Of a DNA stretch of 64,000 nucleotides, positions 25,755 to 40,255 are shown one piece after another (within the stretch, counting starts at the first letter, position 1; each line of letters begins with the position of its first letter). A program made the translations under genes and the position numbers. Origin of the DNA: Verrucomicrobiia bacterium (GTDB taxonomy: Bacteria > Verrucomicrobiota > Verrucomicrobiia > Palsa-1439). The notes below the pieces were generated by a model. That model was given only the letters and a program-made list of their open reading frames with translations. It was not told the DNA's origin and searched no databases. The stretch is from the NCBI GenBank assembly GCA_037441425.1, contig JBBISF010000001.1:69068-133067 (forward strand). The letters run 5' to 3'.

Positions 25755-27692
25755 TCAGCGCAAATACGTATCCAATACCCGCAGCACTTCCGCCACGCTC
25801 CAGGCTTGGGCGAAACAACCCACCGGGTGGTGCGGTTCGTCGCCGTCGAAGATTTCGGAGATTGAACCCAAACCGGCCTCCTCCAGGTGCGCGAACAAAG
25901 GCTGCAACAACCGCGCCATTTCCTTCTTCTGCGGCTTACCCGGGCCGTGGACTCGGGCGTAAGCGTCACAGTACGGGCCGATCAACCACGACCACACCGT
26001 GCCTTGGTGATAGGCGCAATCGCGTTGCCAACGATTGCCGGCATAGCGGCCCACGTATTTCTCGTGCTGGGGCGACAAGCTGCGCAACCCGTACGGCGTG
26101 AGCAAATGTTGGGTGACCACTTCGAGCACGTGCTTTTGCTGCGTTTCATCCAGTGGCGAGTACGGCAGGCTCACCGCAAAAATCTGATTGGGACGCACGG
26201 ATGGGTCCCGGAAATCCTCGCGAACGACGTCGTAGAGATAGCCGCCCTCAGAGAACCAAAACGCTTTCAGGAAACTTGCCGCCACCCGGTCGGCTTCCTT
26301 GCGCAACGGCACGGCGGCATGAACGTCGGCGGCCACTTTTTCCTCCAACTCCGCCAGCATCAAAAGCGCATTCAACCACAGCGCATTGATCTCGACCGGC
26401 TTGCCGTGTCGCGGCGTGGGCACGTACCCGTCCACCTTCACATCCATCCAGGTAAGCTGCGTGCCCGCCTTGCCGGCCGTGATCAGACCGTCGGCGTCCG
26501 CATGAATGTCGTAGCGCGCGCCCGCCGCGTAACCCTTGATGATGTCACGACCGGCCGGCAAGAGGGCGCGGGTGCCGTCCTTGTCGCCGGTCGCCCGCCA
26601 GTATTTCCATACCGCCACCACGAACCACAATGCCGCATCCACGGTGTTGTACTCGGGGGTCTCGCCGGCATCGGGGAAGACGTTCGGCAACATCCCGCAG
26701 TCGCAGTACTTCGCATACGTCTGGAGAATCTGCCGGGCGACGTCGTAATGGCCAGTGGTCAACGTCAATCCCGGCAGAGCAATCATCGTGTCCCGACCCC
26801 AATCGGTAAACCACGGGTAACCGGCCAGCACGGTCAGATTGTCTTTCCCGCGCCGCGCAATGAACGAATCCGCGGCAATGATCAGTGCCCGCCGCACCGG
26901 GTCGGTTTCCCGGTCAAACTGGCTCCGCCGTTCGCGTTCCCGGGTCAACAACCCTTCCGCCTTGCCGTTCTTGCCCTCGGTGGAAACGACGAGATGGGCC
27001 GTTTGTCCAGCCGGCAGACGAAACGTCAGTTCAAAGGGCGTGAACAGGTCTTCCTCAAAATCCAATCCCCGTTCCTGTTCTATCGGGTAGATGAATCGCT
27101 GATACCAGTCCGGTTTCGTTTCAACCGCGTCGGGCCGGCAATGAAAATACAAACGCGGCAAGCCTGGGTACGGTTGAACGGATAGCCCGCGCTCGTTTCG
27201 CTCGACCGACAGATTGACGGTGTCGTTGCGCTCGGTGAGCGCGTTGTAATCCCGGCAGGCCAGCAACGGTCGTAACCGGAGTTCGATCGGGGCGCGCGAC
27301 CGGACATTCCGATAGCCAATGACGACCGTATTCTCGCCGTGAACCAGCGTGACCGTTTTCTCGATTTCGAAATCGCCGGTCACGTAGCGGAACAGCGGCC
27401 ACGGACGCAGTTGAAACTCGATTTGGATGTTGAACCCGTGGGGATACACCGTGCCGGGATAGAGATTGGTGGACAAATGCGCGTCGCCGACCTGTTCTTC
27501 GATTTTCGAGAGCAACACGTACCGCTCAACCGGCGGTTTGAGGGAGGCGACCAACAGACCGTGTTGCCGGCGGGTGTTGGCGCCGATGATGGTCGAACTG
27601 GCGAAGCCGCCGATGCCGTTGGTTTCCAGCCACTCCTTGGAGAGGGCCGTCTTAAGATCCTGACAATCTGTTTTGCCGAAGCTCGTCCGCAC
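25755..27692 (-). CDS. glycogen debranching enzyme (amylo-alpha-1,6-glucosidase family, GDE_N plus (alpha/alpha)6 barrel)
   Basis: N-terminal EWLETNGIGGFASSTIIGANTRRQHGLL and C-terminal GTVWSWLIGPYCDAYARVHG are typical of archaeal-type GDE. Confidence 0.8.
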   Translation of the reverse strand: MRTSFGKTDCQDLKTALSKEWLETNGIGGFASSTIIGANTRRQHGLLVASLKPPVERYVLLSKIEEQVGDAHLSTNLYPGTVYPHGFNIQIEFQLRPWPLFRYVTGDFEIEKTVTLVHGENTVVIGYRNVRSRAPIELRLRPLLACRDYNALTERNDTVNLSVERNERGLSVQPYPGLPRLYFHCRPDAVETKPDWYQRFIYPIEQERGLDFEEDLFTPFELTFRLPAGQTAHLVVSTEGKNGKAEGLLTRERERRSQFDRETDPVRRALIIAADSFIARRGKDNLTVLAGYPWFTDWGRDTMIALPGLTLTTGHYDVARQILQTYAKYCDCGMLPNVFPDAGETPEYNTVDAALWFVVAVWKYWRATGDKDGTRALLPAGRDIIKGYAAGARYDIHADADGLITAGKAGTQLTWMDVKVDGYVPTPRHGKPVEINALWLNALLMLAELEEKVAADVHAAVPLRKEADRVAASFLKAFWFSEGGYLYDVVREDFRDPSVRPNQIFAVSLPYSPLDETQQKHVLEVVTQHLLTPYGLRSLSPQHEKYVGRYAGNRWQRDCAYHQGTVWSWLIGPYCDAYARVHGPGKPQKKEMARLLQPLFAHLEEAGLGSISEIFDGDEPHHPVGCFAQAWSVAEVLRVLDTYLR

Positions 27693-27792: not shown

Positions 27793-29859
27793 TCAGGGAG
27801 CTTGCGGGCTGTCGTTCCCGGTTGTGGATGGTTCGGCCTCGTCCAGGTTGTGATGGCCGACGACCATGCCGTCGTCCAGAGCGTTGCGTTTGACGGTCTT
27901 CAACGACCGGAACAGTTGGATCAAATCGCGAATCCCGCCCCACGTGAACCACACCGTGGTCACGACGCCGATGATGAAGGGCAGGAAGATCACGTAGATG
28001 TACCAGTAGTGGCCCCACGTGACCAGCGACCACGGCCGCCATAAATACCACGCGGTACCCACGAGAAACACGATAAACCAGAACATGCTCCAAATGAACA
28101 CACTGCTCGATAGAATCTTATCCCCCAAGGTGAATTCGTGATCGAAACCCAAGATGCCACCCCACGTGAACCGGCGTTGGGCGGTGGTGAGCGATTCACC
28201 GGGCTTGGTTTCGATGGCGTACTGGCCGCGGTGCAACATGCGGTCCATGTTGAAGTCCTCCTTGCAGGTCAGCAGGGAAATCACGATGTAGAGCGCAATG
28301 GCGACGACCATGGCGATGAACCACATCCATTGGCCGTTGATGGGAAACTTATCCGCGTGGCGCGCCAGATACTCGTGGACGGTGCCGGCCGGGAACAACG
28401 TCACCAGCTTCGGCTGGAGCTGGGTCCACATCTGTTCCAGGACGATGGCGCCGGTGGCCAGAACCGAGCCGGTCAACATGCTCACCCAAGCGGCAATATT
28501 GGTGCCTTTCTTCCAGTACAACCCGCCCAAGACCGCGCACCCGGAGCCGCCCAGGAAGATCGTGCCGGTAATGGCGAAGAACATCAGGATGTACTGGGTC
28601 TGGTTAAAGAACAGTCCAAAGAGAAACGCAAACAACCCCACGCCCGCAATTGACCAGCGGAGCAGCCGGATGTGTTGCTTGGGCAAAAGGGGTTTCTTCC
28701 AGAACGGCAGCAGCACGTCCTGCACAAAGATGCTGCCCCAGGAGTGCATGTAGGAGCCGTCACACGCGAGCATCGCGAAAAACATGATGCACGCGAACGA
28801 GCCCTTAACGCCAATGGGCAGGAGAAAGCTCAACGCCACCGGCACGCGCATCTGCTCCTGGATTTGTGCTTGGGGGATCGCCTTCAGTGCGTTGGTCACC
28901 TGCGCCGCCCCGCCGGCAAAGTCCGGGTTATTCAAATACGTGAACGCGCAAACTCCCAGCAACGAAATCATCACCGATCGCGAGACGCCGCGCCAACCAC
29001 CCAGAATATTGCCCATCTTGGCTTCATGCGGGCTGGCGGCACTGGCCCGAAAGGCGTGCCCCCCCTGCCACGACATATAGGAGTAAATGCCGCCGACAAT
29101 CCCGATCAAGACGTACCAGATGTTGAAGTCCTGCGCGCTGGCCGTGTCGAACGGATTGAGCATGGACTGGCCCTTCGGCGCGGCGGCCAAGGCCGTGTAA
29201 ATCTCCGACCACTTGAAGATGCACAACAAGGCCACCGCCACCACCAGATAAAGCACCCCGGACAGCAACCCTTCCAGACAATCGCTGATCATGATGGTCA
29301 ACTGCCCGCCGATCAGGGTCACCCCCAGCGCCGACGAAATGAAGATGGCCATCACCATGCCAAACGTCGGCACCGTGTGCCCCCAAACGGTGAGCGTCTG
29401 GGGCCAGCCGCAGTAGTTGACGAAGAACCGCGCGCCGACTGCCGGGAAGATGCCGAAGTTCAGAACACCCGAAATCCACGCCAGAATGCCGGTCAGAATC
29501 CGAAACCCTTTACTGTAACGAACCTCAAAGAGTTGGGACATCGTCAGCACCCGCGTTTCCCGGTAGCGGTAGATGACAAACCCGGTCAACGTGACGATCA
29601 ATCCGATGGGGATGCTCAACGATTGCCACCAGTTGATGGCGAACCCGGTTTTGTAAATGTACTCAAAAATCGCCACGGCGCTGACCGCGCCAAAACCAGC
29701 TTCCCCCGCGGCGTTGCAGACCAGATACCGGCCCGCGCACCGGCTGGCCGCCATGAAATCCGCCACGCTTCTCACGTAGCGCCGCGTCGCCCACGAGACG
29801 ATGACGATGACCACAATCGGCACGACCATGATGGCGTAATCAACCCAATGCATTCGCAT
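27793..29859 (-). CDS. sodium:solute symporter family (SSS) transporter
   Basis: A 688-aa protein with about 14 TM helices and an SSF-like N-terminus. Confidence 0.8.
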   Translation of the reverse strand: MRMHWVDYAIMVVPIVVIVIVSWATRRYVRSVADFMAASRCAGRYLVCNAAGEAGFGAVSAVAIFEYIYKTGFAINWWQSLSIPIGLIVTLTGFVIYRYRETRVLTMSQLFEVRYSKGFRILTGILAWISGVLNFGIFPAVGARFFVNYCGWPQTLTVWGHTVPTFGMVMAIFISSALGVTLIGGQLTIMISDCLEGLLSGVLYLVVAVALLCIFKWSEIYTALAAAPKGQSMLNPFDTASAQDFNIWYVLIGIVGGIYSYMSWQGGHAFRASAASPHEAKMGNILGGWRGVSRSVMISLLGVCAFTYLNNPDFAGGAAQVTNALKAIPQAQIQEQMRVPVALSFLLPIGVKGSFACIMFFAMLACDGSYMHSWGSIFVQDVLLPFWKKPLLPKQHIRLLRWSIAGVGLFAFLFGLFFNQTQYILMFFAITGTIFLGGSGCAVLGGLYWKKGTNIAAWVSMLTGSVLATGAIVLEQMWTQLQPKLVTLFPAGTVHEYLARHADKFPINGQWMWFIAMVVAIALYIVISLLTCKEDFNMDRMLHRGQYAIETKPGESLTTAQRRFTWGGILGFDHEFTLGDKILSSSVFIWSMFWFIVFLVGTAWYLWRPWSLVTWGHYWYIYVIFLPFIIGVVTTVWFTWGGIRDLIQLFRSLKTVKRNALDDGMVVGHHNLDEAEPSTTGNDSPQAP

Positions 29860-32322: not shown

Positions 32323-34542
32323 TCACGCTGTATACGGCAGCGGGAATTGGGCGGTGAGGGCGCGTACTTTGCCGCGCACCTTGTCGGCAACGGCCAGGTT
32401 GCCGGGATTCTCCAGCGCTTCGGTCATCAACCCGGCAATCTGCTCCATCTCCGGCTCTTTCATGCCGCGGGTGGTGACGGCGGGCGTGCCGACACGGATG
32501 CCGGAGGCGACCATCGGTTTCTCGGGATCGAACGGAATCATATTCTTGTTCACCGTGATCCCGGCTTGGTCGAGCGCCTCCTGCGCAACCTTGCCGGTCA
32601 ATTTCTTCGGCCGCAGATCCACCAACATCAAATGATTGTCCGTGCCGCCACTGACGATCCGGAAACCGCGTTTGCTCAGGGCGGCCGCCAATACGGCGGC
32701 GTTCTTGACGATCTGGCGTTGGTAGTCCTTGAACTCCGGCCGCAACGCTTCCTGGAAACAAACGGCCTTGGCGGCAATGATGTGCATGAGCGGGCCGCCT
32801 TGGATGCCGGGGAAGATTTGGGAGTTCACCGCTTTCGCGTGCGCTTCCTTGCAGAGAATCAATCCCGCGCGCGGGCCGCGCAACGTCTTGTGCGTCGTGC
32901 TGGTCACGATGTCGGCGTGTGGAACCGGGTTCGCATGCACGCCGCCCGCGACCAGCCCGGCAATGTGCGCCATGTCCACCACCAACGCCGCGCCCACGGC
33001 CTTCGCGATGGCCGCAAATCCGGCAAAATCGAGCGTGCGCGGGTAGGCACTGGCTCCGACGACGATGATGCGCGGTTTCTCGGACTGAGCGAGCCGCGCC
33101 ACTTCGTCCATGTCGATGCGTTCCGTCTGCTGGCTCACGCCGTACGGCACGATCCGAAACAATCGGCCGGAGAAATTGACCGACGCGCCGTGCGTGAGGT
33201 GTCCGCCGAAGTTCAGGCTCATCGCCAAAATCGTGTCGCCCGGCTTGGCCAACGCGAAGTACGCGGCCATGTTGGCCTGGCTGCCGGAATGGGGCTGGAC
33301 GTTGGCATGTTCCGCGCCGAACAGTTGTTTGGCACGATCAATCGCCAATTGCTCCGCGACGTCCACAACCTCACAGCCACCGTAGTAGCGCTTACCGGGA
33401 TAACCTTCGGCGTATTTATTCGTAAGCACGCTGCCGGCCGCTTCGAGGACGGACGGGTTGACGAAATTCTCGCTGGCGATCAGCTCGATGTTTTCCTGTT
33501 GGCGTTGCTTCTCGCGTTGGACAACCGTGAAGATTTCCGGGTCGGTTTGCGCCAGCGCCGAACTCTTTTTCAGAGTCAGACCGGGTTTAAGCGGCGGCTG
33601 ATCCATCTTCTGCACCCGCCGCGCGTGCCGGCCGCCCGCAAACGGTGTCCTGAGCCAGACATCGAGAATGCGGACGGCCTGCTCGTTGTTCAGCTCGATG
33701 CCGGACAGGACAAGGACGTTGGCGTCGTTGTGTTCGCGACTGAGGCGCGCCCATTGCTCACTGCCGACCATCGCCGCGCGCACGCCGACGACACGGTTGG
33801 CGGCGATGCTCATGCCAATGCCACTCTTGCAGATCAATACGCCCCGCTCGGAATTGCCGGCGGCGACTTCCTCGGCAACCGCAAACGCGTAGTCCGGGTA
33901 ATCGCACGGCTCGGTCGAATTCGTGCCGAGATCGGTGAACTGATAACCTTGTTTGGTCAGCCACTCTTTCAACGCCGCCTTCATCTCCACGCCGCCGTGA
34001 TCGGCCCCCAACACGATGCGCGGCGTGACGGTCTGGGTTTCAGTGGTTTCGCTCAAGGTTTTCTTCATCACACGTTCCGTTTGATCAATGAACTCCAACA
34101 CCGAGGGCAAGGCGTCGCGGATTTGGTCGCGCGTTTGCCGGTACACTCCCACCGGCGAGCCGATCGGGTCGGCAATGTCCCGACTCTCGTCCGGCGGCAC
34201 TTCCTGAAACTCCCGCAGCACGAAAATCTTCTCCGCCGCCTCCGGGTACAACGCCTGCAGCAAATCCTGCTGCTGCCGCGTCATCGTGAACACGAAATCC
34301 GCCTGCTCGATCATCCCGGCCCGCAACGCCAAGCTGCGGTGATGCGTCAGATTACCGCCCAACTCCGCCATCACGTCCACGGCCAAATCGGTGGCCGGTT
34401 GCCCATCCACCGCGCCGATGCCGGCTGAGACGCACCGGACATCGCCGCGTTTCCGCGCGAGCTTGTCCATCAACGCTTCCGCCATTGGACTGCGACAGAC
34501 GTTGCCCGTGCACACAAACAAAATGGTTTTCACTTTTGCCAT
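32323..34542 (-). CDS. tri-domain fusion of low-molecular-weight phosphotyrosine/arginine phosphatase, ribose-5-phosphate isomerase B and serine hydroxymethyltransferase
   Basis: aa 1-157: [14 protein letters not shown] is the CX5R P-loop of LMW-PTP. aa about 175-305: [21 protein letters not shown]...[17 protein letters not shown] is RpiB/LacAB. aa about 313-739: ELIASENF...THKTLRGPR is SHMT with the PLP lysine. One uninterrupted 739-aa frame. In-frame Met codons at 34071 and 33606 mark the domain starts. Confidence 0.8.
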
Positions 34543-34554
34543 CGCGTCCGCCGC

Positions 34555-35673
34555 TTACTGCCAGGAGAGCAACACCCGGATGCCCTTCAAAACATCCACC
34601 GCCCGCTGCAACACCACGTCCCGCACGTTCTGGATTTCGCCTTTGTCATCCGCTTCCTTCTCACCCTTGTCCCCGGCCGGTTGCGACAAATCCAGCCCCA
34701 CCGACTCGCCGCGAAACGCCTTCAACAACTCCGCCTCCGACCGCACCTGCTTCGGCAACGTCGGCTGCAAACTCACCGTCAACGTCACGTTCGTCGCGGC
34801 GGACGACAACACCTCCCGCTCCACGCTCGGATCAATCGACACGAAAATATCCGGCGCGATCCCGTTCGGAAACACGTCCGTCACCGGCATGTTCTTCGGA
34901 TCGCCCGGCTCCAACACCACCTTCGCCGACGCCAACCGCAAAATCTGACCGTCCACCAACGGCACATCATCCCACGCCACTGCCGAGCCGGCCGTCAAAC
35001 TGCCGATCACGATCCCCCGGTCCTGCGCCCGCAACGCGCCGACCAACGCCTCCGCGCTCCCGGTCGTGTGCGCATTCACCAGCAACATCAACGGCGCTTC
35101 CGGCACCCGCACAAACGCGCCCGCCGCCGCCGTGCTCGCGTGGAACACCTCGTTACTCTGCCCAGCCCGCTTGATGACGAACAGCTCCTGCCCGTCCGCC
35201 AAGAACCGACTCGCGATCGCCGCCGCCGCCGCGTAATCGTCCCCACCCGCGTACCGCAAATCCAGCACGTACCCGGTCGCCTTGGCGTCCACGAACTTCT
35301 TCAACTCCACGTCCAACGGATTCACCGCCGCGCCCGTCACCGCCACCAAATGAATGTAACCAATGTCCGGCTGGATGATTTCCGCACGCGCCACCGGCGC
35401 CGTGCCGGCCGGCAACGCCGTGCTCGACTCGGTCAGCTCCATGCCGTTCGTGCCGTGCGCCGAGGGCGACAACAGCACCGCGCCCCGCCCGATGGAGCTC
35501 AGGATCCCGGCCACGCTCGCCGCCTGCAACGACTGATTGTCCACTTGATTGGCGTCCACGTAATGCGTCTTCAACGCCCGAATGACTTGCGTCACTTCAT
35601 CCGTGGCATTCGTCTCCGCCCCGACGCGACCGGCCACCACGACCGCCGCCAAAAACAAAATGAGTTTCTTCAT
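34555..35673 (-). CDS. S41-family peptidase (C-terminal processing protease-like), secreted
   Basis: Signal peptide MKKLILFLAAVVVAGRVGA. VLDLRYAGGDDYAAAAAIASRFL...NAHTTGSAEALVGAL resembles the S41 catalytic region. Confidence 0.65.
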   Translation of the reverse strand: MKKLILFLAAVVVAGRVGAETNATDEVTQVIRALKTHYVDANQVDNQSLQAASVAGILSSIGRGAVLLSPSAHGTNGMELTESSTALPAGTAPVARAEIIQPDIGYIHLVAVTGAAVNPLDVELKKFVDAKATGYVLDLRYAGGDDYAAAAAIASRFLADGQELFVIKRAGQSNEVFHASTAAAGAFVRVPEAPLMLLVNAHTTGSAEALVGALRAQDRGIVIGSLTAGSAVAWDDVPLVDGQILRLASAKVVLEPGDPKNMPVTDVFPNGIAPDIFVSIDPSVEREVLSSAATNVTLTVSLQPTLPKQVRSEAELLKAFRGESVGLDLSQPAGDKGEKEADDKGEIQNVRDVVLQRAVDVLKGIRVLLSWQ

Positions 35674-35685
35674 GTGCTTGCTGTT

Positions 35686-36963
35686 TTATTTCCGCCGCGC
35701 CAACGCGCGGGCCGCAATATCGCGCCGGTACTGCGCCCCGTCAAAATGAATCCGTTCCACCGCCTCATACACGCGCGTCACCGCCCCGGCAATGTCCGCC
35801 CCGAGCGCCGTCACGCCGAGCACCCGGCCGCCGTCCGTGACAATCGCGCCTTTGCCACCGCGCCGCGTCCCGGCATGGAACACCGACACGTTAGCCAACG
35901 CCTCCGCCTCCTTCAATCCGGTAATCGGCTTGCCCTTCTGATAACTGCCGGGATAACCGCCCGCGGCCAGCACCACGCACACTGCCGCGTCCTTCTTCCA
36001 CCGCAACTCCACCTCCGCCAACCGGCCCGCCGCCGTCGCTTCCAACGCGTCCAGCAAATCCGAATCCAACCGCGGCAACACTGCCTGCGTCTCCGGGTCG
36101 CCAAACCGCGCGTTAAATTCCAGTACCTTCGGCCCGTCCTGCGTCAACATCAGCCCCGCGTACATCACCCCGCGAAACTCAATCCCCTGCGCCCGCAACC
36201 CGGCCAGCGTCCGCTCAAAAACTTGGTCAATGACCGGCTGATGCTTCTTCAACACCGCCGGCGTGGGCGAATACGCGCCCATCCCCCCCGTGTTCGGCCC
36301 GGCATCATTGTCGTAAATCCGCTTATGATCCTGCGCCGACGCCAACACCCGGAACGTCTTCCCGTCCACCAACGCCATCACGGACGCCTCTGCGCCGGAC
36401 AAACATTCCTCCAACAAAATCCGCTTCCCGGCGTCGCCGAAAATCCGGCGCTCCAGCATGTCCCCAATTGCCTGCTCGGCTTCCGCGACGGACTCCGCGA
36501 CGATCACTCCCTTGCCGGCCGCCAATCCATCTGCCTTCACCACCACCGGCGCGCCCGTCTTCCGCAGATACGCCCGCGCCTTGCCGGCCTCCTCGAAAAT
36601 CTCCGCCCGGCCCGTCGGCACCCCGGCCTGCAACAATATCTGTTTGCAGAATACCTTACTCCCCTCCAACTGCGCCGCGCGCTTCGTCGGCCCGAACACC
36701 CGGAGCCCCTTGGCCTGCAGCGCATCCACAATCCCGGCGCACAACGGCGCTTCCGGTCCCACCACGGTGAAATCGATCTGCTCCTTCACCGCCAACGCGA
36801 CCAGTTGACCGATATCTGTGGCCGCGATCGGCACGCACTCTGCCTGTTGGGCGATGCCGGCATTACCGGGTGCGCAGTAGAGTTTGGTGACACGTTTGCT
36901 TTGGGCCAATTTCCAAACGAGCGCATGCTCCCGCCCGCCGCCGCCGATGATCAGGACTTTCAT
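35686..36963 (-). CDS. purD: phosphoribosylamine--glycine ligase
   Basis: MKVLIIGGGGREHALVWKLAQS...ATP-grasp core. 425 aa. Confidence 0.9.
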   Translation of the reverse strand: MKVLIIGGGGREHALVWKLAQSKRVTKLYCAPGNAGIAQQAECVPIAATDIGQLVALAVKEQIDFTVVGPEAPLCAGIVDALQAKGLRVFGPTKRAAQLEGSKVFCKQILLQAGVPTGRAEIFEEAGKARAYLRKTGAPVVVKADGLAAGKGVIVAESVAEAEQAIGDMLERRIFGDAGKRILLEECLSGAEASVMALVDGKTFRVLASAQDHKRIYDNDAGPNTGGMGAYSPTPAVLKKHQPVIDQVFERTLAGLRAQGIEFRGVMYAGLMLTQDGPKVLEFNARFGDPETQAVLPRLDSDLLDALEATAAGRLAEVELRWKKDAAVCVVLAAGGYPGSYQKGKPITGLKEAEALANVSVFHAGTRRGGKGAIVTDGGRVLGVTALGADIAGAVTRVYEAVERIHFDGAQYRRDIAARALARRK

Positions 36964-38099: not shown

Positions 38100-39611
38100 T
38101 TGCCGGTCCGTTTGGGCAAGTTCTGTCAACGGGTAACGTCGCTTGTCTCTCAACCGGACCGCGACTACACTGCCGGTGTGAGTCCGCTGGAGAAAATCAA
38201 CGATTGGCTGTGGGAATTGCCAGCGGGGTACAAGTCGGGAATGCGGGTGCCGGGGCGGATTTATGCCTCGGAGAAAATGCTGGAGCACATCGTCGGCGAT
38301 AACTGCCTGGAACAGGTGGCGAATGTCGCGTTCTTGCCGGGGATCCAGAAGTATTCGCTGGCGATGCCGGATATTCATTGGGGGTACGGGTTTCCCATCG
38401 GCGGGTGTTGCGCGACCGATCCCCGGCAAGGCGGCGTGATTTCTCCGGGCGGGGTCGGGTACGACATCAACTGCGGGGTCCGGTTGATGCGGACGAATTT
38501 GACGCAGGCGGAGGTCGCGCCGCGGATCAAGGAATTGGTGGCGCAGTTGTTCCGCGATATTCCGTGCGGGCTGGGGCGCGGGAGCGATCTGCAGTTGACG
38601 GTGGAGGACGAGCGGAAATGCGTGCAGCAGGGCGCGCATTGGGCGGTGGAACATGGGTTCGGCAGCGCCGATGATCTGGATTTCATCGAGGAACGAGGCC
38701 GGTTGGCGGAGGCGGAGCCGTCGAACATCACCACCCGGGCGTTGGAACGCGGGAAAGGTCAACTCGGTTCGCTCGGCAGCGGGAATCATTTTCTGGAAGT
38801 GCAGGTGGTGGACGAAGTGTTCCACGCGGACGCCGCGGAGGTGATGGGGTTGGCGCAGGGACAGGTGACGGTGATGATTCATTGCGGGTCGCGCGGGTTT
38901 GGGTATCAGGTGTGCGACGATTATCTGAAGGTGTTGCGGGATGCGCCGCGCAAGTATGGGATTCATCTGCCCGACCGGCAATTGGTGAGCGCACCGGTGC
39001 ACTCACCGGAAGGCGAGGAGTATCTCACTTCAATGCGGTGCGCGGCGAATTATGCGTTTGCCAACCGGCAGGTGTTGATGGCCAAGGCGGAGAAGGCGTT
39101 CCGGCACGCGCTGCGGATTTCGCCGAAGGAACTGGGGATGGAATTGGTGTACGACGTGCCGCATAACATCGCGAAGTTGGAGGAGCATGGCGGGCGGACG
39201 GTGTGCGTCCACCGGAAAGGCGCGACGCGGGCGTTTCCGCCGGGGCATCCGCTGATTCCGGTGCGGTACCGGAGCATCGGGCAACCAGTGTTGGTGCCGG
39301 GGGATATGGGCCGGTATTCGTTTGTGCTGGTGGGAACGCAAGGCGCGATGGAACAAACGTGGGGCACGGTATGCCACGGCGCGGGCCGGATGATGAGCCG
39401 GGCGCGGGCGAAGAAGGAACACAGTTTCCAAGACCTGCAACGGACGATGGATGAACGCGGGGTGGTGATGATGGCCCAAGGGCGAGGGACGGCGTTGGAG
39501 GAGGCGCCGTGGGCGTATAAAGACGTGGAAAACGTGGTGGATGTTTGTCATAATGCCGGGCTGGCGAGGAAAGTGGCCCGCTTGCGGCCTATCGGCGTGG
39601 TGAAAGGTTAA
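38100..39611 (+). CDS. rtcB: RNA-splicing ligase RtcB (3'-phosphate/5'-hydroxyl nucleic acid ligase)
   Basis: AMPDIHWGYGFPIGG, GVGYDINCGVRL, GSGNHFLEVQ and HNIAKLEEH are the RtcB metal and GTP site motifs. Confidence 0.85.
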   Translation: MPVRLGKFCQRVTSLVSQPDRDYTAGVSPLEKINDWLWELPAGYKSGMRVPGRIYASEKMLEHIVGDNCLEQVANVAFLPGIQKYSLAMPDIHWGYGFPIGGCCATDPRQGGVISPGGVGYDINCGVRLMRTNLTQAEVAPRIKELVAQLFRDIPCGLGRGSDLQLTVEDERKCVQQGAHWAVEHGFGSADDLDFIEERGRLAEAEPSNITTRALERGKGQLGSLGSGNHFLEVQVVDEVFHADAAEVMGLAQGQVTVMIHCGSRGFGYQVCDDYLKVLRDAPRKYGIHLPDRQLVSAPVHSPEGEEYLTSMRCAANYAFANRQVLMAKAEKAFRHALRISPKELGMELVYDVPHNIAKLEEHGGRTVCVHRKGATRAFPPGHPLIPVRYRSIGQPVLVPGDMGRYSFVLVGTQGAMEQTWGTVCHGAGRMMSRARAKKEHSFQDLQRTMDERGVVMMAQGRGTALEEAPWAYKDVENVVDVCHNAGLARKVARLRPIGVVKG

Positions 39612-40255
39612 TGGATAGCACCGAAAAAATCCCCCTGAATATCGCGGTGGATGCGGCGTCCAAATCTGGTGATGAACGCGCCCGAGTGGAACCGTCGGAC
39701 CGCGAAGTGGTGGAGCGTTGCCAGCGGGGCGAACTCCGCGCCTATGAGTTGCTGGTCAACCGTTACCGGCAACGGGTCTATGCGCTGGCGTATGGCATGT
39801 TGCGCAACGAACCGGATGCCACCGATGTCGCCCAAGAAGCCTTCGTGCGCGCCTGGCAGGGCATCCGCCGCTTCCGCAAGAACGCGTCGTTCTACACGTG
39901 GATTTACCGGATCACCACCAATCTCTGTATTGATTTTGTCCGGAAACGAGATCGTCAGCCGACGACGACGTTCGAGGAAGCGCTGGGTCCTGACACCGAC
40001 GCGGACGTGGCGGAGCCACCCTCGACCAATCCACTGCCCACGCAAGAGGTGGAGCGCAAGGAATTGCGGGAACAGATTGACGCCGCGCTGGCCGAGCTTT
40101 CACCCGAGCATCGCGCCGTTGTGCAACTCCGGGAGTTTGAGGGACTGGAGTATGCCGAGATCGCCAAGGTGGTCGGCTGCTCCATCGGCACGGTCATGTC
40201 GCGACTGCATTACGCGCGGAAACATTTACAGAAACTGTTGAAGGACGACTTATGA
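39611..40255 (+). CDS. ECF-family RNA polymerase sigma factor (sigma-E-like)
   Basis: Region 2 YRQRVYALAYGMLRNEPDATDVAQEAFVRAW and region 4 EFEGLEYAEIAKVVGCSIGTVMSRL. The ATG overlaps the rtcB TAA (TAATG). Confidence 0.85.
   Translation: MDSTEKIPLNIAVDAASKSGDERARVEPSDREVVERCQRGELRAYELLVNRYRQRVYALAYGMLRNEPDATDVAQEAFVRAWQGIRRFRKNASFYTWIYRITTNLCIDFVRKRDRQPTTTFEEALGPDTDADVAEPPSTNPLPTQEVERKELREQIDAALAELSPEHRAVVQLREFEGLEYAEIAKVVGCSIGTVMSRLHYARKHLQKLLKDDL

Follow-up and report, generated by a model that had tools for sequence, protein, structure and literature searches.

Domain content of the locus

The window, by which we mean the whole 64,000-nucleotide stretch of DNA that was analysed, contains on its minus strand a single open reading frame of 739 aa that begins with an ATG and continues without an in-frame stop through three enzyme modules: a low-molecular-weight protein phosphatase (LMW-PTP), a ribose-5-phosphate isomerase B (RpiB) and a serine hydroxymethyltransferase (SHMT). 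The features of the locus are as follows.

32323..34542, minus strand: complete fusion gene, LMW-PTP, linker, RpiB, linker, SHMT; 739 codons and a stop (open reading frame list, Pfam, NCBIfam, homologs)
34078..34530, minus strand: LMW-PTP module, residues ~5-155; PF01451 at 99.9 bits, YwlE matches in the PDB, AF2 pLDDT 81-93
34489..34512, minus strand: P-loop C11-T-G-N-V15-C-R17-S18; Val15 at the position of YwlE Thr11 in a gapless alignment to YwlE CTGNTCRS
34165..34170, minus strand: Asp125-Pro126 of the general-acid loop (DIADPIG); invariant in 120/120 homologs, aligned to YwlE DVLDPFG
34021..34077, minus strand: linker 1, residues 156-174; includes the non-conserved Met159, AF2 pLDDT <50 at residues 160-171
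33598..34020, minus strand: RpiB module, residues 175-315; TIGR01120, invariant residues, PDB 3he8 and 3ph3 at E ~2e-40
33556..33597, minus strand: linker 2, residues ~316-329; Pro-rich, AF2 pLDDT <50 at residues 318-331
32326..33555, minus strand: SHMT (GlyA) module, residues 330-739; PF00464, NF000586, PLP-binding Lys552 at 32887-32889
34555..35673, minus strand: S41-family peptidase gene; PF03572, 12 nt upstream of the fusion start
35686..36963, minus strand: purD (phosphoribosylamine-glycine ligase); GARS_N, GARS_A and GARS_C, 12 nt upstream of the S41 gene

All three modules match at full profile length in the Pfam and NCBIfam scans, with domain extents of residues 7-146 (LMW-PTP), 175-315 (RpiB) and 330-735 (SHMT), and with E-values this low the reading frame cannot plausibly be due to chance. 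The central observation of an earlier note on this DNA, that one frame carries the three modules with no stop between them, is therefore borne out by both the open reading frame list and the full-length domains. A 693-aa open reading frame on the plus strand (32347..34428) was rejected as an antisense shadow of the GC-rich fusion gene.

The RpiB module aligns to Pfam LacAB_rpiB over residues 176-313 (E = 1.2e-51, profile 1-138/138) and scores above the cutoffs of the NCBIfam rpiB equivalog TIGR01120 (147.4, cutoff 138.65) and of PRK05571 (169, cutoff 135); LacA, LacB and DerI were rejected as identities, since their models score far under their cutoffs. The catalytic Asp-His, Cys-x-Ser/Thr, His-Asn and C-terminal Arg residues are all present, in roles that we take to be those of established RpiB structures: Asp181, His182, Cys238 (33829-33831), His271, Asn272, His306 and Arg309 are invariant in 120 homologs, Arg305 is kept in 119/120, and position 240 holds either Ser (114 homologs) or Thr (6 homologs). 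For the SHMT module, PF00464 covers residues 330-705 (E = 4.1e-164; 546 bits, cutoff 27; profile 1-398/399), NCBIfam NF000586 reaches 650 (cutoff 335), PDB matches to SHMT reach E ~1e-169, and the PLP-lysine motif T549-T550-H551-K552-T-L-R-G-P-R558 is invariant in 120/120 homologs. By score and motif, the module is assigned to GlyA. The fusion is also kept in one divergent lineage whose SHMT domain is apparently dead.

Identity across homologs is 56% in the phosphatase module, 70% in RpiB and 77% in SHMT, and only 14% in linker 1 (6-26 aa, Ala/Pro/Thr-rich) and 30% in linker 2 (3-18 aa). On the evidence of this alignment, the catalytic residues of each module are kept under purifying selection and the linkers are free to evolve. 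AF2 models the phosphatase and RpiB modules confidently and gives the linkers pLDDT values below 50; both linkers are predicted to be disordered, and together with the pTM of 0.51 these values imply no fixed packing between the modules. Confidence also drops within the SHMT module, at residues 354-392 and 666-679, which is probably due to modelling as a monomer with 51 sequences only. Among the PDB sequence matches we found no chain that combines any two of the modules.

Conservation and translation of the fused frame

The best 120 homolog clusters listed share 65-77% identity with the window protein over 97-100% coverage, are 666-758 aa long, all contain PF01451, PF02502 and PF00464, and are named Verrucomicrobia or Verrucomicrobiae. 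Every one is fused in frame over both junctions, so that the further fused homologs which the earlier note thought worth looking for do exist. At the genome level, at least seven species (L001-L007) carry the triple fusion in one frame, and among the matches listed triple fusions come from Akkermansia muciniphila, Chthoniobacterales, Pedosphaera and Verrucomicrobiales genomes. The earlier note had also allowed for lost stop codons or an assembly error; in such a pseudo-fusion, three separate genes would have lost their stops to a recent mutation or to a mistake in sequencing or assembly. Separate genes are indeed found in related phyla (L014, L023, L048, L057), a fact that gives an artefact no positive support; the recurrence of one frame in all of the clusters and genomes just described, with linkers of varied length, refutes it, an identical protein, encoded on a 173.5-kb contig, is also deposited at NCBI, and the architecture has been published twice (PMC2474590, PMC13608581). 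We regard the probability of an artefact as negligible. Judged from these genomes, the fusion is a genuine single gene conserved across Verrucomicrobia, and rpiB and glyA now typically take this form in Verrucomicrobiota.

A genuine gene could still yield several proteins, through internal initiation at Met codons or proteolysis of the linkers, in which case the fusion would be transcriptional only. In-frame ATGs do occur at 34068 and 33606, the linkers, being disordered in the AF2 model, would be open to proteases, and a Met is present in 20/120 linker-1 and 31/120 linker-2 sequences. The earlier note read the two Met codons as old gene boundaries, with the second as the SHMT start. Its position for the second, Met313 at 33606, is correct, but 34071 is the preceding GTG (Val158), and Met159 of MKKTLSE is the ATG at 34068-34066. 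Neither codon holds up as a boundary. The Met159 column varies among homologs (A47/R19/T15 and others), while Met313 lies inside the RpiB domain, at a hydrophobic M/I/L position of the conserved C-terminal helix GGRHxRRVxKM; PDB RpiB chains align through residue 315, past Met313, SHMT begins only at ~328-330, and a start at Met313 would truncate nothing useful. No Shine-Dalgarno-like sequence was found upstream of either Met, and the frame is unbroken over variable linkers in all homologs examined, which argues that the covalent link matters. We consider separate products very unlikely; translation as one chain of ~80 kDa from Met1, within a purD-S41-fusion operon, would be the expected outcome.

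The N-terminus itself is easily misannotated. An apparent absence of the P-loop in 24/120 homologs was rejected as a missed GTG start, the P-loop being encoded in the L081 DNA; homologs that seem to start at Met20 likewise reflect missed GTG starts, with the P-loop encoded upstream. A true lack of the P-loop in the 50%-identity representatives P0121, P0124 and P0253 was also rejected, and P0271 is the longer form of P0253. In L081 the GTG start of the fusion overlaps the stop codon of the S41 gene (GTGA), and this overlap suggests translational coupling.

Specificity of the phosphatase module

The phosphatase module matches Pfam LMWPc over residues 7-146 (E = 1.9e-28, profile 1-141/144) and has both hallmarks of the LMW-PTP superfamily, a C-X5-R-(S/T) P-loop and a general-acid Asp in a D-P loop. 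The P-loop residues C, G, N, C, R and S do not vary among the 96 homologs whose N-terminus is included, and the module is probably catalytically competent. Its nearest PDB structures are the YwlE arginine phosphatases 4pic, 4kk3 and 1zgg (E ~1e-24), with MptpA (E 1e-13) and Wzb (E 1e-11) more distant. Wzb/Etp and thioredoxin-type ArsC were rejected as identities on their NCBIfam scores (PRK11391 58.8, cutoff 247; Wzb 56.6, cutoff 243; ArsC 46.2, cutoff 215).

The label given earlier to this module, a YwlE-type arginine phosphatase, stands in so far as characterised arginine phosphatases are its closest solved relatives, but not as regards specificity. A Thr at P-loop position 5 determines phosphoarginine specificity, by a Thr-versus-Ile rule, and Thr-to-Ile mutants of YwlE, PtpB and DARP lose their phosphoarginine preference and gain activity on phosphotyrosine or pNPP (PMC7772506, PMC8001253). 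The window protein has Val15 at this position, and the homologs that include the N-terminus have Val (84/96) or Ile (12/96) and never Thr (0/96). We stress that this count comes from the independent set of 120 homologs, since our scan of genome contigs, a sample and not a census, searched with a P-loop pattern specific for V/I, which favours P-loops with Val/Ile. With Val in place of Thr, the phosphoarginine preference has probably been lost, by analogy with the Thr-to-Ile mutants, and the substrates would more likely be phosphotyrosine or aryl-phosphate-like compounds.

Although the relationship to YwlE would fit a true protein arginine phosphatase opposing an McsB-like kinase, as would the diagnostic Thr or Ser carried by the unfused rpiB-adjacent phosphatases of Planctomycetota, Pontiella and Omnitrophota, the Val/Ile of all 96 close homologs and the behaviour of the mutants make this assignment unlikely. 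The Val at position 5 amounts to a prediction that the phosphoarginine preference is gone.

Origin, genomic context and known counterparts

The fusion is best explained by the joining of consecutive genes in an ancient and widely conserved string, tsaC-ptp-rpiB-glyA-upp. Among unfused rpiB loci with sufficient downstream sequence, glyA lies directly downstream of rpiB in 34/61, in many phyla; the order of the three modules mirrors this widespread unfused string, as the earlier note had proposed from Bacillus subtilis. Other joints of the string have also been fused: RpiB-SHMT in Pontiella, Kiritimatiellae, Victivallales, some Verrucomicrobiales and one Eisenbacteria MAG; PTP-SHMT, without RpiB, in some Chthoniobacterales (L067, L072); TsaC-PTP in Planctomycetota and Omnitrophota; and RpiB-Upp in one Bacillota MAG. 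In a neighbour-joining tree, which is approximate, distance-based and carries no support values, L067 and L072 group next to a triple fusion, and the tree is consistent with secondary loss of RpiB there and with an independent fusion in Eisenbacteria.

The genes upstream suggest a metabolic setting. The S41 peptidase gene is probably in the same operon as the fusion, and the S41-fusion order recurs in L081 and in Akkermansia L002; between 32000 and 38300, promoter and terminator matches were no more numerous than expected by chance. A same-strand purD sits upstream, adjoining ptp/rpiB/glyA genes, in L081, L002, L005, L014 and L023, and a partial purD lies ~3.4 kb upstream in L052, so that purD linkage holds in the window and in 6/13 of the Verrucomicrobiota-type and Omnitrophota loci examined. 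No further copy of rpiA, rpiB or glyA was found within the 64-kb window. Because purD is upstream in several lineages, a role in purine-precursor supply fits, on the basis of pathway knowledge and this adjacency. RpiB and SHMT, assembled via their normal dimer interfaces and working as independent active sites, would together supply ribose-5-phosphate (leading to PRPP and phosphoribosylamine), glycine and one-carbon units, products that would feed nucleotide synthesis and especially that of purines. The fusion would then secure 1:1 co-expression, not substrate channelling.

A closer functional coupling can be imagined, in which the phosphatase acts in cis on either of the attached enzymes, or has a phospho-metabolite of their pathway as its substrate, to make a regulated purine-precursor unit. 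The physical tie of ptp to the gene string across phyla, the purD linkage, the Chthoniobacterales phosphatases that are still fused to SHMT after the loss of RpiB (L067, L072) and the change of the P-loop Thr to Val/Ile in the fused clade, a hint of a substrate shift, all speak for it. The variety of joints (TsaC-PTP, RpiB-SHMT without PTP, RpiB-Upp), however, better fits opportunistic fusion of neighbours, ptp is separate in L078 and Pontiella, AF2 predicts no interface between modules (pTM 0.51), and our literature search found no report linking SHMT to YwlE-type dephosphorylation, nor one naming SHMT as a target of YwlE or of arginine phosphorylation. Coupling of this kind is distinctly unlikely. 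We give equally little credence to a phosphatase repurposed by the Thr to Val/Ile change after fusion and acting in cis on SHMT/RpiB or on a sugar phosphate or PRPP-related compound. If true, the protein would be a self-regulating unit that tunes the supply of ribose-5-phosphate, glycine and one-carbon units to purine synthesis, with purD co-transcribed, and the repurposing would explain why PTP-SHMT persists where RpiB has been deleted and why a fusion is kept with an apparently dead SHMT domain.

Taking all of this together, the explanation that we hold to be very probable is that of a single-gene, three-module enzyme with two short flexible linkers, a fused housekeeping string. The fusion is genuine, ordinary in origin and already known, and is not a new kind of system. 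A whole phylum has RpiB and SHMT in this form as standard, its members including Akkermansia muciniphila from the gut and the methanotrophic Methylacidiphilum, and the finding of the fusion in organisms that are not methylotrophs, Akkermansia among them, suggests a general housekeeping function. Databases label it as RpiB only or SHMT only, and metabolic reconstructions can therefore overlook one of the activities. As a Rosetta-stone case the fusion is clean, tying a YwlE-like phosphatase to nucleotide-precursor metabolism.

Comparison with characterised proteins and gene strings places the window protein as follows. Stand-alone RpiB (PDB 3he8, 1o1x, 1nn4) and stand-alone bacterial SHMT (PDB 4n0w, 1kkj, 1dfo) give full-length, high-scoring matches with all catalytic residues kept, but the solved proteins are single-domain chains, whereas here each is one module of three. 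The two-domain RpiB-SHMT proteins have the same RpiB-to-SHMT junction, with a short Pro-rich linker and the catalytic motifs kept, and differ from the window protein in having no phosphatase at the N-terminus; Pontiella encodes ptp in an open reading frame of its own, which ends 4 nt upstream of RpiB-SHMT and has Thr in its P-loop, and in L078 a separate ptp lies 1.2 kb upstream. The B. subtilis string, which we take to be ywlC(tsaC)-ywlD-ywlE-ywlF(rpiB)-ywlG-glyA-upp, has ptp, rpiB and glyA in the order of the fusion, YwlE being the phosphatase most like that of the window, and in Staphylococcus aureus (NWMN_2020-ptpB-glyA) ptpB adjoins glyA. These Firmicutes genes are separate, in contrast to the covalently fused modules of the window, and YwlE and PtpB are phosphoarginine phosphatases with Thr, not Val, at P-loop position 5.

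Closest of all are proteins of the same phylum. The earlier note overestimated the novelty of the architecture: Minf_1669 of Methylacidiphilum infernorum V4 was described in 2008 as having the same three domains in one protein (Hou et al. 2008, PMC2474590), and a paper of 2026 (PMC13608581) noted RpiB-SHMT proteins as "unusual enzymes" in Limisphaera and further verrucomicrobia. Our literature search found no description of the fusion in Akkermansia and no further papers on it. By the published domain description the window protein is of the Minf_1669 type, both papers naming the domains and not their order; with the Minf_1669 and Limisphaera proteins it shares the same three homologous domains, and we see no architectural difference between them.

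The three-domain protein and its homologs

The ORF list and Pfam confirmed the 739-aa, three-domain ORF described in the earlier note, whose domains do not overlap and are practically full length.

32323..34542, minus strand: fusion ORF of low-molecular-weight phosphatase (PTP), RpiB and SHMT, 739 aa, ATG start
Residues 7-146: LMWPc domain (profile 1-141/144, Pfam E 1.9e-28)
Residues 176-313: LacAB_rpiB domain (profile 1-138/138, Pfam E 1.2e-51)
Residues 330-705: SHMT domain (profile 1-398/399, Pfam E 4.1e-164)

By NCBIfam, the C-terminal module exceeds the SHMT cutoff (NF000586, 650 vs 335) and the middle module the RpiB equivalog cutoff (TIGR01120, 147.4 vs 138.65); the phosphatase module reached no specific subfamily cutoff, with Wzb, Etp and ArsC far under theirs. 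We do not count the antisense 693-aa ORF (32347..34428, plus strand) as a gene; shadow ORFs of this kind are typical of high-GC coding sequence. A further copy of PTP, RpiB or SHMT was not found within the 64-kb window.

The earlier note had left a choice between a genuine polypeptide and lost stop codons or misassembly, and had proposed a search for other fused homologs. Searching 5.8 billion proteins, we found an identical NCBI entry. Each of the best-scoring 120 clusters listed, at 65-77% identity, 97-100% coverage and lengths of 666-758 aa, has all three Pfam domains in frame; where a source is named, it is a Verrucomicrobia or Verrucomicrobiae MAG, and the annotation reads only 'RpiB' or only 'SHMT'. 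In the alignment of these 120 homologs, invariant residues comprise P-loop C11, G13, N14, C16, R17 and S18 and D125-P126 of the phosphatase; D181, H182, C238, H271, N272, H306 and R309 of RpiB (R305 occurs in 119, and position 240 holds either Ser or Thr throughout); and the SHMT motif T549-T-H-K552-T-L-R-G-P-R. Compared with the query, the homologs average 56% identity in PTP, 70% in RpiB and 77% in SHMT, and only 14% and 30% in the first and second linkers, which are Ala/Pro/Thr-rich and vary from 6 to 26 and from 3 to 18 residues, respectively. Because the frame is unbroken across these variable linkers in every homolog examined, assembly error and recent stop loss are excluded, and a genuine polypeptide is strongly supported. 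In an AlphaFold2 model (51-sequence alignment), the PTP and RpiB modules are confident (pLDDT about 80-93), and pLDDT drops below 50 precisely at both linkers (residues 160-171 and 318-331); the pTM of 0.51 points to modules arranged like beads on a string, with no fixed packing predicted.

Two internal methionines had been proposed as old gene boundaries. The codon assigned to 34071 ('MKKTLSE') is a GTG (Val158), the ATG of Met159 lying at 34068; Met313 was correctly placed at 33606, but falls within RpiB rather than at an SHMT boundary. In the 120 homologs the Met159 column is unconserved (Ala 47, Arg 19, Thr 15, others), and the Met313 column (M/I/L, 106/9/5) is a hydrophobic site in the C-terminal helix of RpiB, which has the conserved sequence G-G-R-H-x-R-R-V-x-K-M; PDB RpiB chains align to the query through residue 315. 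No SD-like sequence was found upstream of either codon. Together these results do not support the two codons as old gene starts.

Gene calls for 24 of the 120 homologs start at Met20, seemingly without the P-loop. We rejected truncated phosphatases as the explanation, since the DNA of one homolog (P0036, locus L081) shows a missed GTG start, from which the sequence encodes the P-loop ([19 protein letters not shown]). By analogy, the P-loops of the 24 calls, and of the homologs P0121, P0124 and P0253, would have been cut off by gene callers. This GTG overlaps the stop codon of the upstream S41-family peptidase gene (GTGA, L081:2953-2956), which suggests that the fusion is translationally coupled to it.

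The phosphatase module

The closest solved relatives of the phosphatase are the YwlE arginine phosphatases (4pic, 4kk3, 1zgg; E about 1e-24), with weaker PDB matches to MptpA (about 1e-13) and Wzb (about 1e-11). Phosphoarginine preference is set by Thr at P-loop position 5, where canonical LMW-PTPs have Ile, and in YwlE, S. aureus PtpB and Drosophila DARP a Thr-to-Ile mutation costs the enzyme its activity on phosphoarginine and confers activity on phosphotyrosine or pNPP (PMC7772506, PMC8001253). In the window protein this position is Val15; among the 96 homologs whose sequence covers the N-terminus it is Val in 84, Ile in 12 and Thr in none. In our genome sample, biased by one scan pattern that demanded Val or Ile, most unfused phosphatases encoded beside rpiB in Planctomycetota, Pontiella, Omnitrophota and Bacillota have Thr or Ser, and one verrucomicrobial triple fusion (L006) still has Thr. 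The earlier label of arginine phosphatase thus holds for the nearest relatives but not for the defining residue, and is not supported; we class the module as an LMW-PTP of YwlE ancestry that lacks the residue defining phosphoarginine preference, and by analogy with the mutants we predict a shift toward phosphotyrosine-like substrates. PDB entry 4egs is an LMW-PTP structure that matches query residues 6-150, in the phosphatase module, yet its molecule name is 'Ribose 5-phosphate isomerase RpiB', a name probably carried over from the annotation of adjacent or fused genes.

Gene fusions and gene order in other genomes

Among 1.84 billion 50%-identity representatives, triple-fusion clusters are few (P0121, P0124, P0253 and the fragment P0258); several two-domain RpiB-SHMT clusters have 555-577 aa, two of them named Victivallales and Kiritimatiellae.

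Architectures in the genome sample (one genome per species, among matches listed; classified by domain HMMs from the family alignment)
PTP-RpiB-SHMT: L001-L007; Akkermansia muciniphila, Chthoniobacterales, Pedosphaera, Verrucomicrobiales
RpiB-SHMT: L008, Pontiella (separate ptp ORF ends 4 nt upstream); L052 and L078, Verrucomicrobiales; L011, Eisenbacteria
PTP-SHMT without RpiB: L067 (2774-5806) and L072 (3968-5806); Chthoniobacterales / 'Spartobacteria'
Unfused ptp-rpiB-glyA: Omnitrophota, Planctomycetia, one Actinomycetota MAG

When SHMT modules were compared in a rough NJ tree, the verrucomicrobial fusions formed one group. The PTP-SHMT proteins stand beside a Chthoniobacterales triple fusion, consistent with secondary deletion of RpiB, and this nesting suggests a precise loss of the middle domain; the Eisenbacteria RpiB-SHMT lies apart, consistent with an independent event. 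In both PTP-SHMT proteins about 40 aa of low-complexity, Ser/Gly-rich spacer sequence stand in place of RpiB. The triple fusion of L001 (CAZCZP010000001.1) comes from a MAG labelled 'uncultured Bifidobacteriaceae', and in the tree its SHMT module falls very close to the A. muciniphila one; the contig is probably misbinned. The metagenomic proteins P0271 and P0253 (702 and 683 aa; P0271 is the longer form) represent one divergent triple fusion with 35% identity to the query, in which the P-loop (CTGNSCRS) and the catalytic motifs of RpiB are retained; its SHMT-like module has lost the IELIASENF motif and, through replacement of [10 protein letters not shown] by GTGATMRGPG, the PLP lysine, and looks like a dead domain retained within the fusion.

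Where enough downstream sequence was available, glyA directly follows rpiB in 34 of 61 unfused rpiB loci, including Gemmatimonadota, Desulfobacterota, Cloacimonadota, Acidobacteriota, Bacteroidota, Patescibacteria, Nitrospirota, Bdellovibrionota, Alphaproteobacteria and Negativicutes. In B. subtilis the string reads ywlC(tsaC)-ywlD-ywlE-ywlF(rpiB)-ywlG-glyA-upp; in S. aureus, ptpB adjoins glyA. The rpiB-adjacent PTP of Planctomycetota and Omnitrophota carries a fused N-terminal Sua5/YciO/YrdC (TsaC) domain in 6/6 ORFs tested (L048:3356-4444, L077:3161-4435, L009:3269-4456, L014:3326-4417, L079:3254-4471, L023:3386-4456), the fused counterpart of ywlC and ywlE, between which ywlD lies in B. subtilis; TsaC acts in t6A synthesis. 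An RpiB-uracil phosphoribosyltransferase (Upp) fusion in one Bacillota MAG (L029:4362-5582), a short way downstream of an unfused LMW-PTP gene, is another joint of this string. One gene string has therefore been joined at different points in different lineages, the expected outcome of opportunistic fusion among long-standing neighbours.

Upstream of the fusion in the window come the S41-family peptidase gene and then purD, with 12-nt gaps, an order repeated in L081 and Akkermansia. Pedosphaera (L005) and two Omnitrophota loci also have purD a short way upstream and in the same orientation, and L052 has a partial purD about 3.4 kb upstream; upp is the other recurrent neighbour of the string. 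PurD uses glycine, an SHMT product, and phosphoribosylamine, for which ribose-5-phosphate is the source by way of PRPP; SHMT-derived one-carbon units enter later purine steps, and Upp uses PRPP. From pathway logic we infer that the module would serve to supply nucleotide precursors. The downstream LacI-type regulator and MFS transporter genes, on the opposite strand, appear unrelated. Elsewhere in the window, a 688-aa ORF (27793-29859, minus strand) without a Pfam match even at E 0.01 adjoins a glycogen-debranching enzyme gene (25755-27692), and the stop codon of an RtcB RNA ligase gene (38100-39611, plus strand) overlaps by 1 nt the start of the ECF sigma-factor gene that follows directly (39611-40255, plus strand).

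Relation to described fusions

No PDB chain holds more than one of the three modules, and we found no biochemical characterisation of the fusion in the literature. Its origin is explained by the joining of neighbouring housekeeping genes; the remaining interest lies in a biochemically uncharacterised phosphatase with a P-loop switch, in PTP-SHMT proteins persisting without RpiB, and in one divergent lineage whose SHMT module is apparently dead. A 2026 Limisphaera paper (PMC13608581) mentions RpiB carrying an additional SHMT domain 'in different verrucomicrobia', and Hou et al. 2008 (PMC2474590) called Minf_1669 of Methylacidiphilum infernorum unusual, a protein with domains of SHMT, low-molecular-weight phosphatase and RpiB. 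The window protein joins the same three domains as Minf_1669 and is a further member of this already described, phylum-typical fusion.
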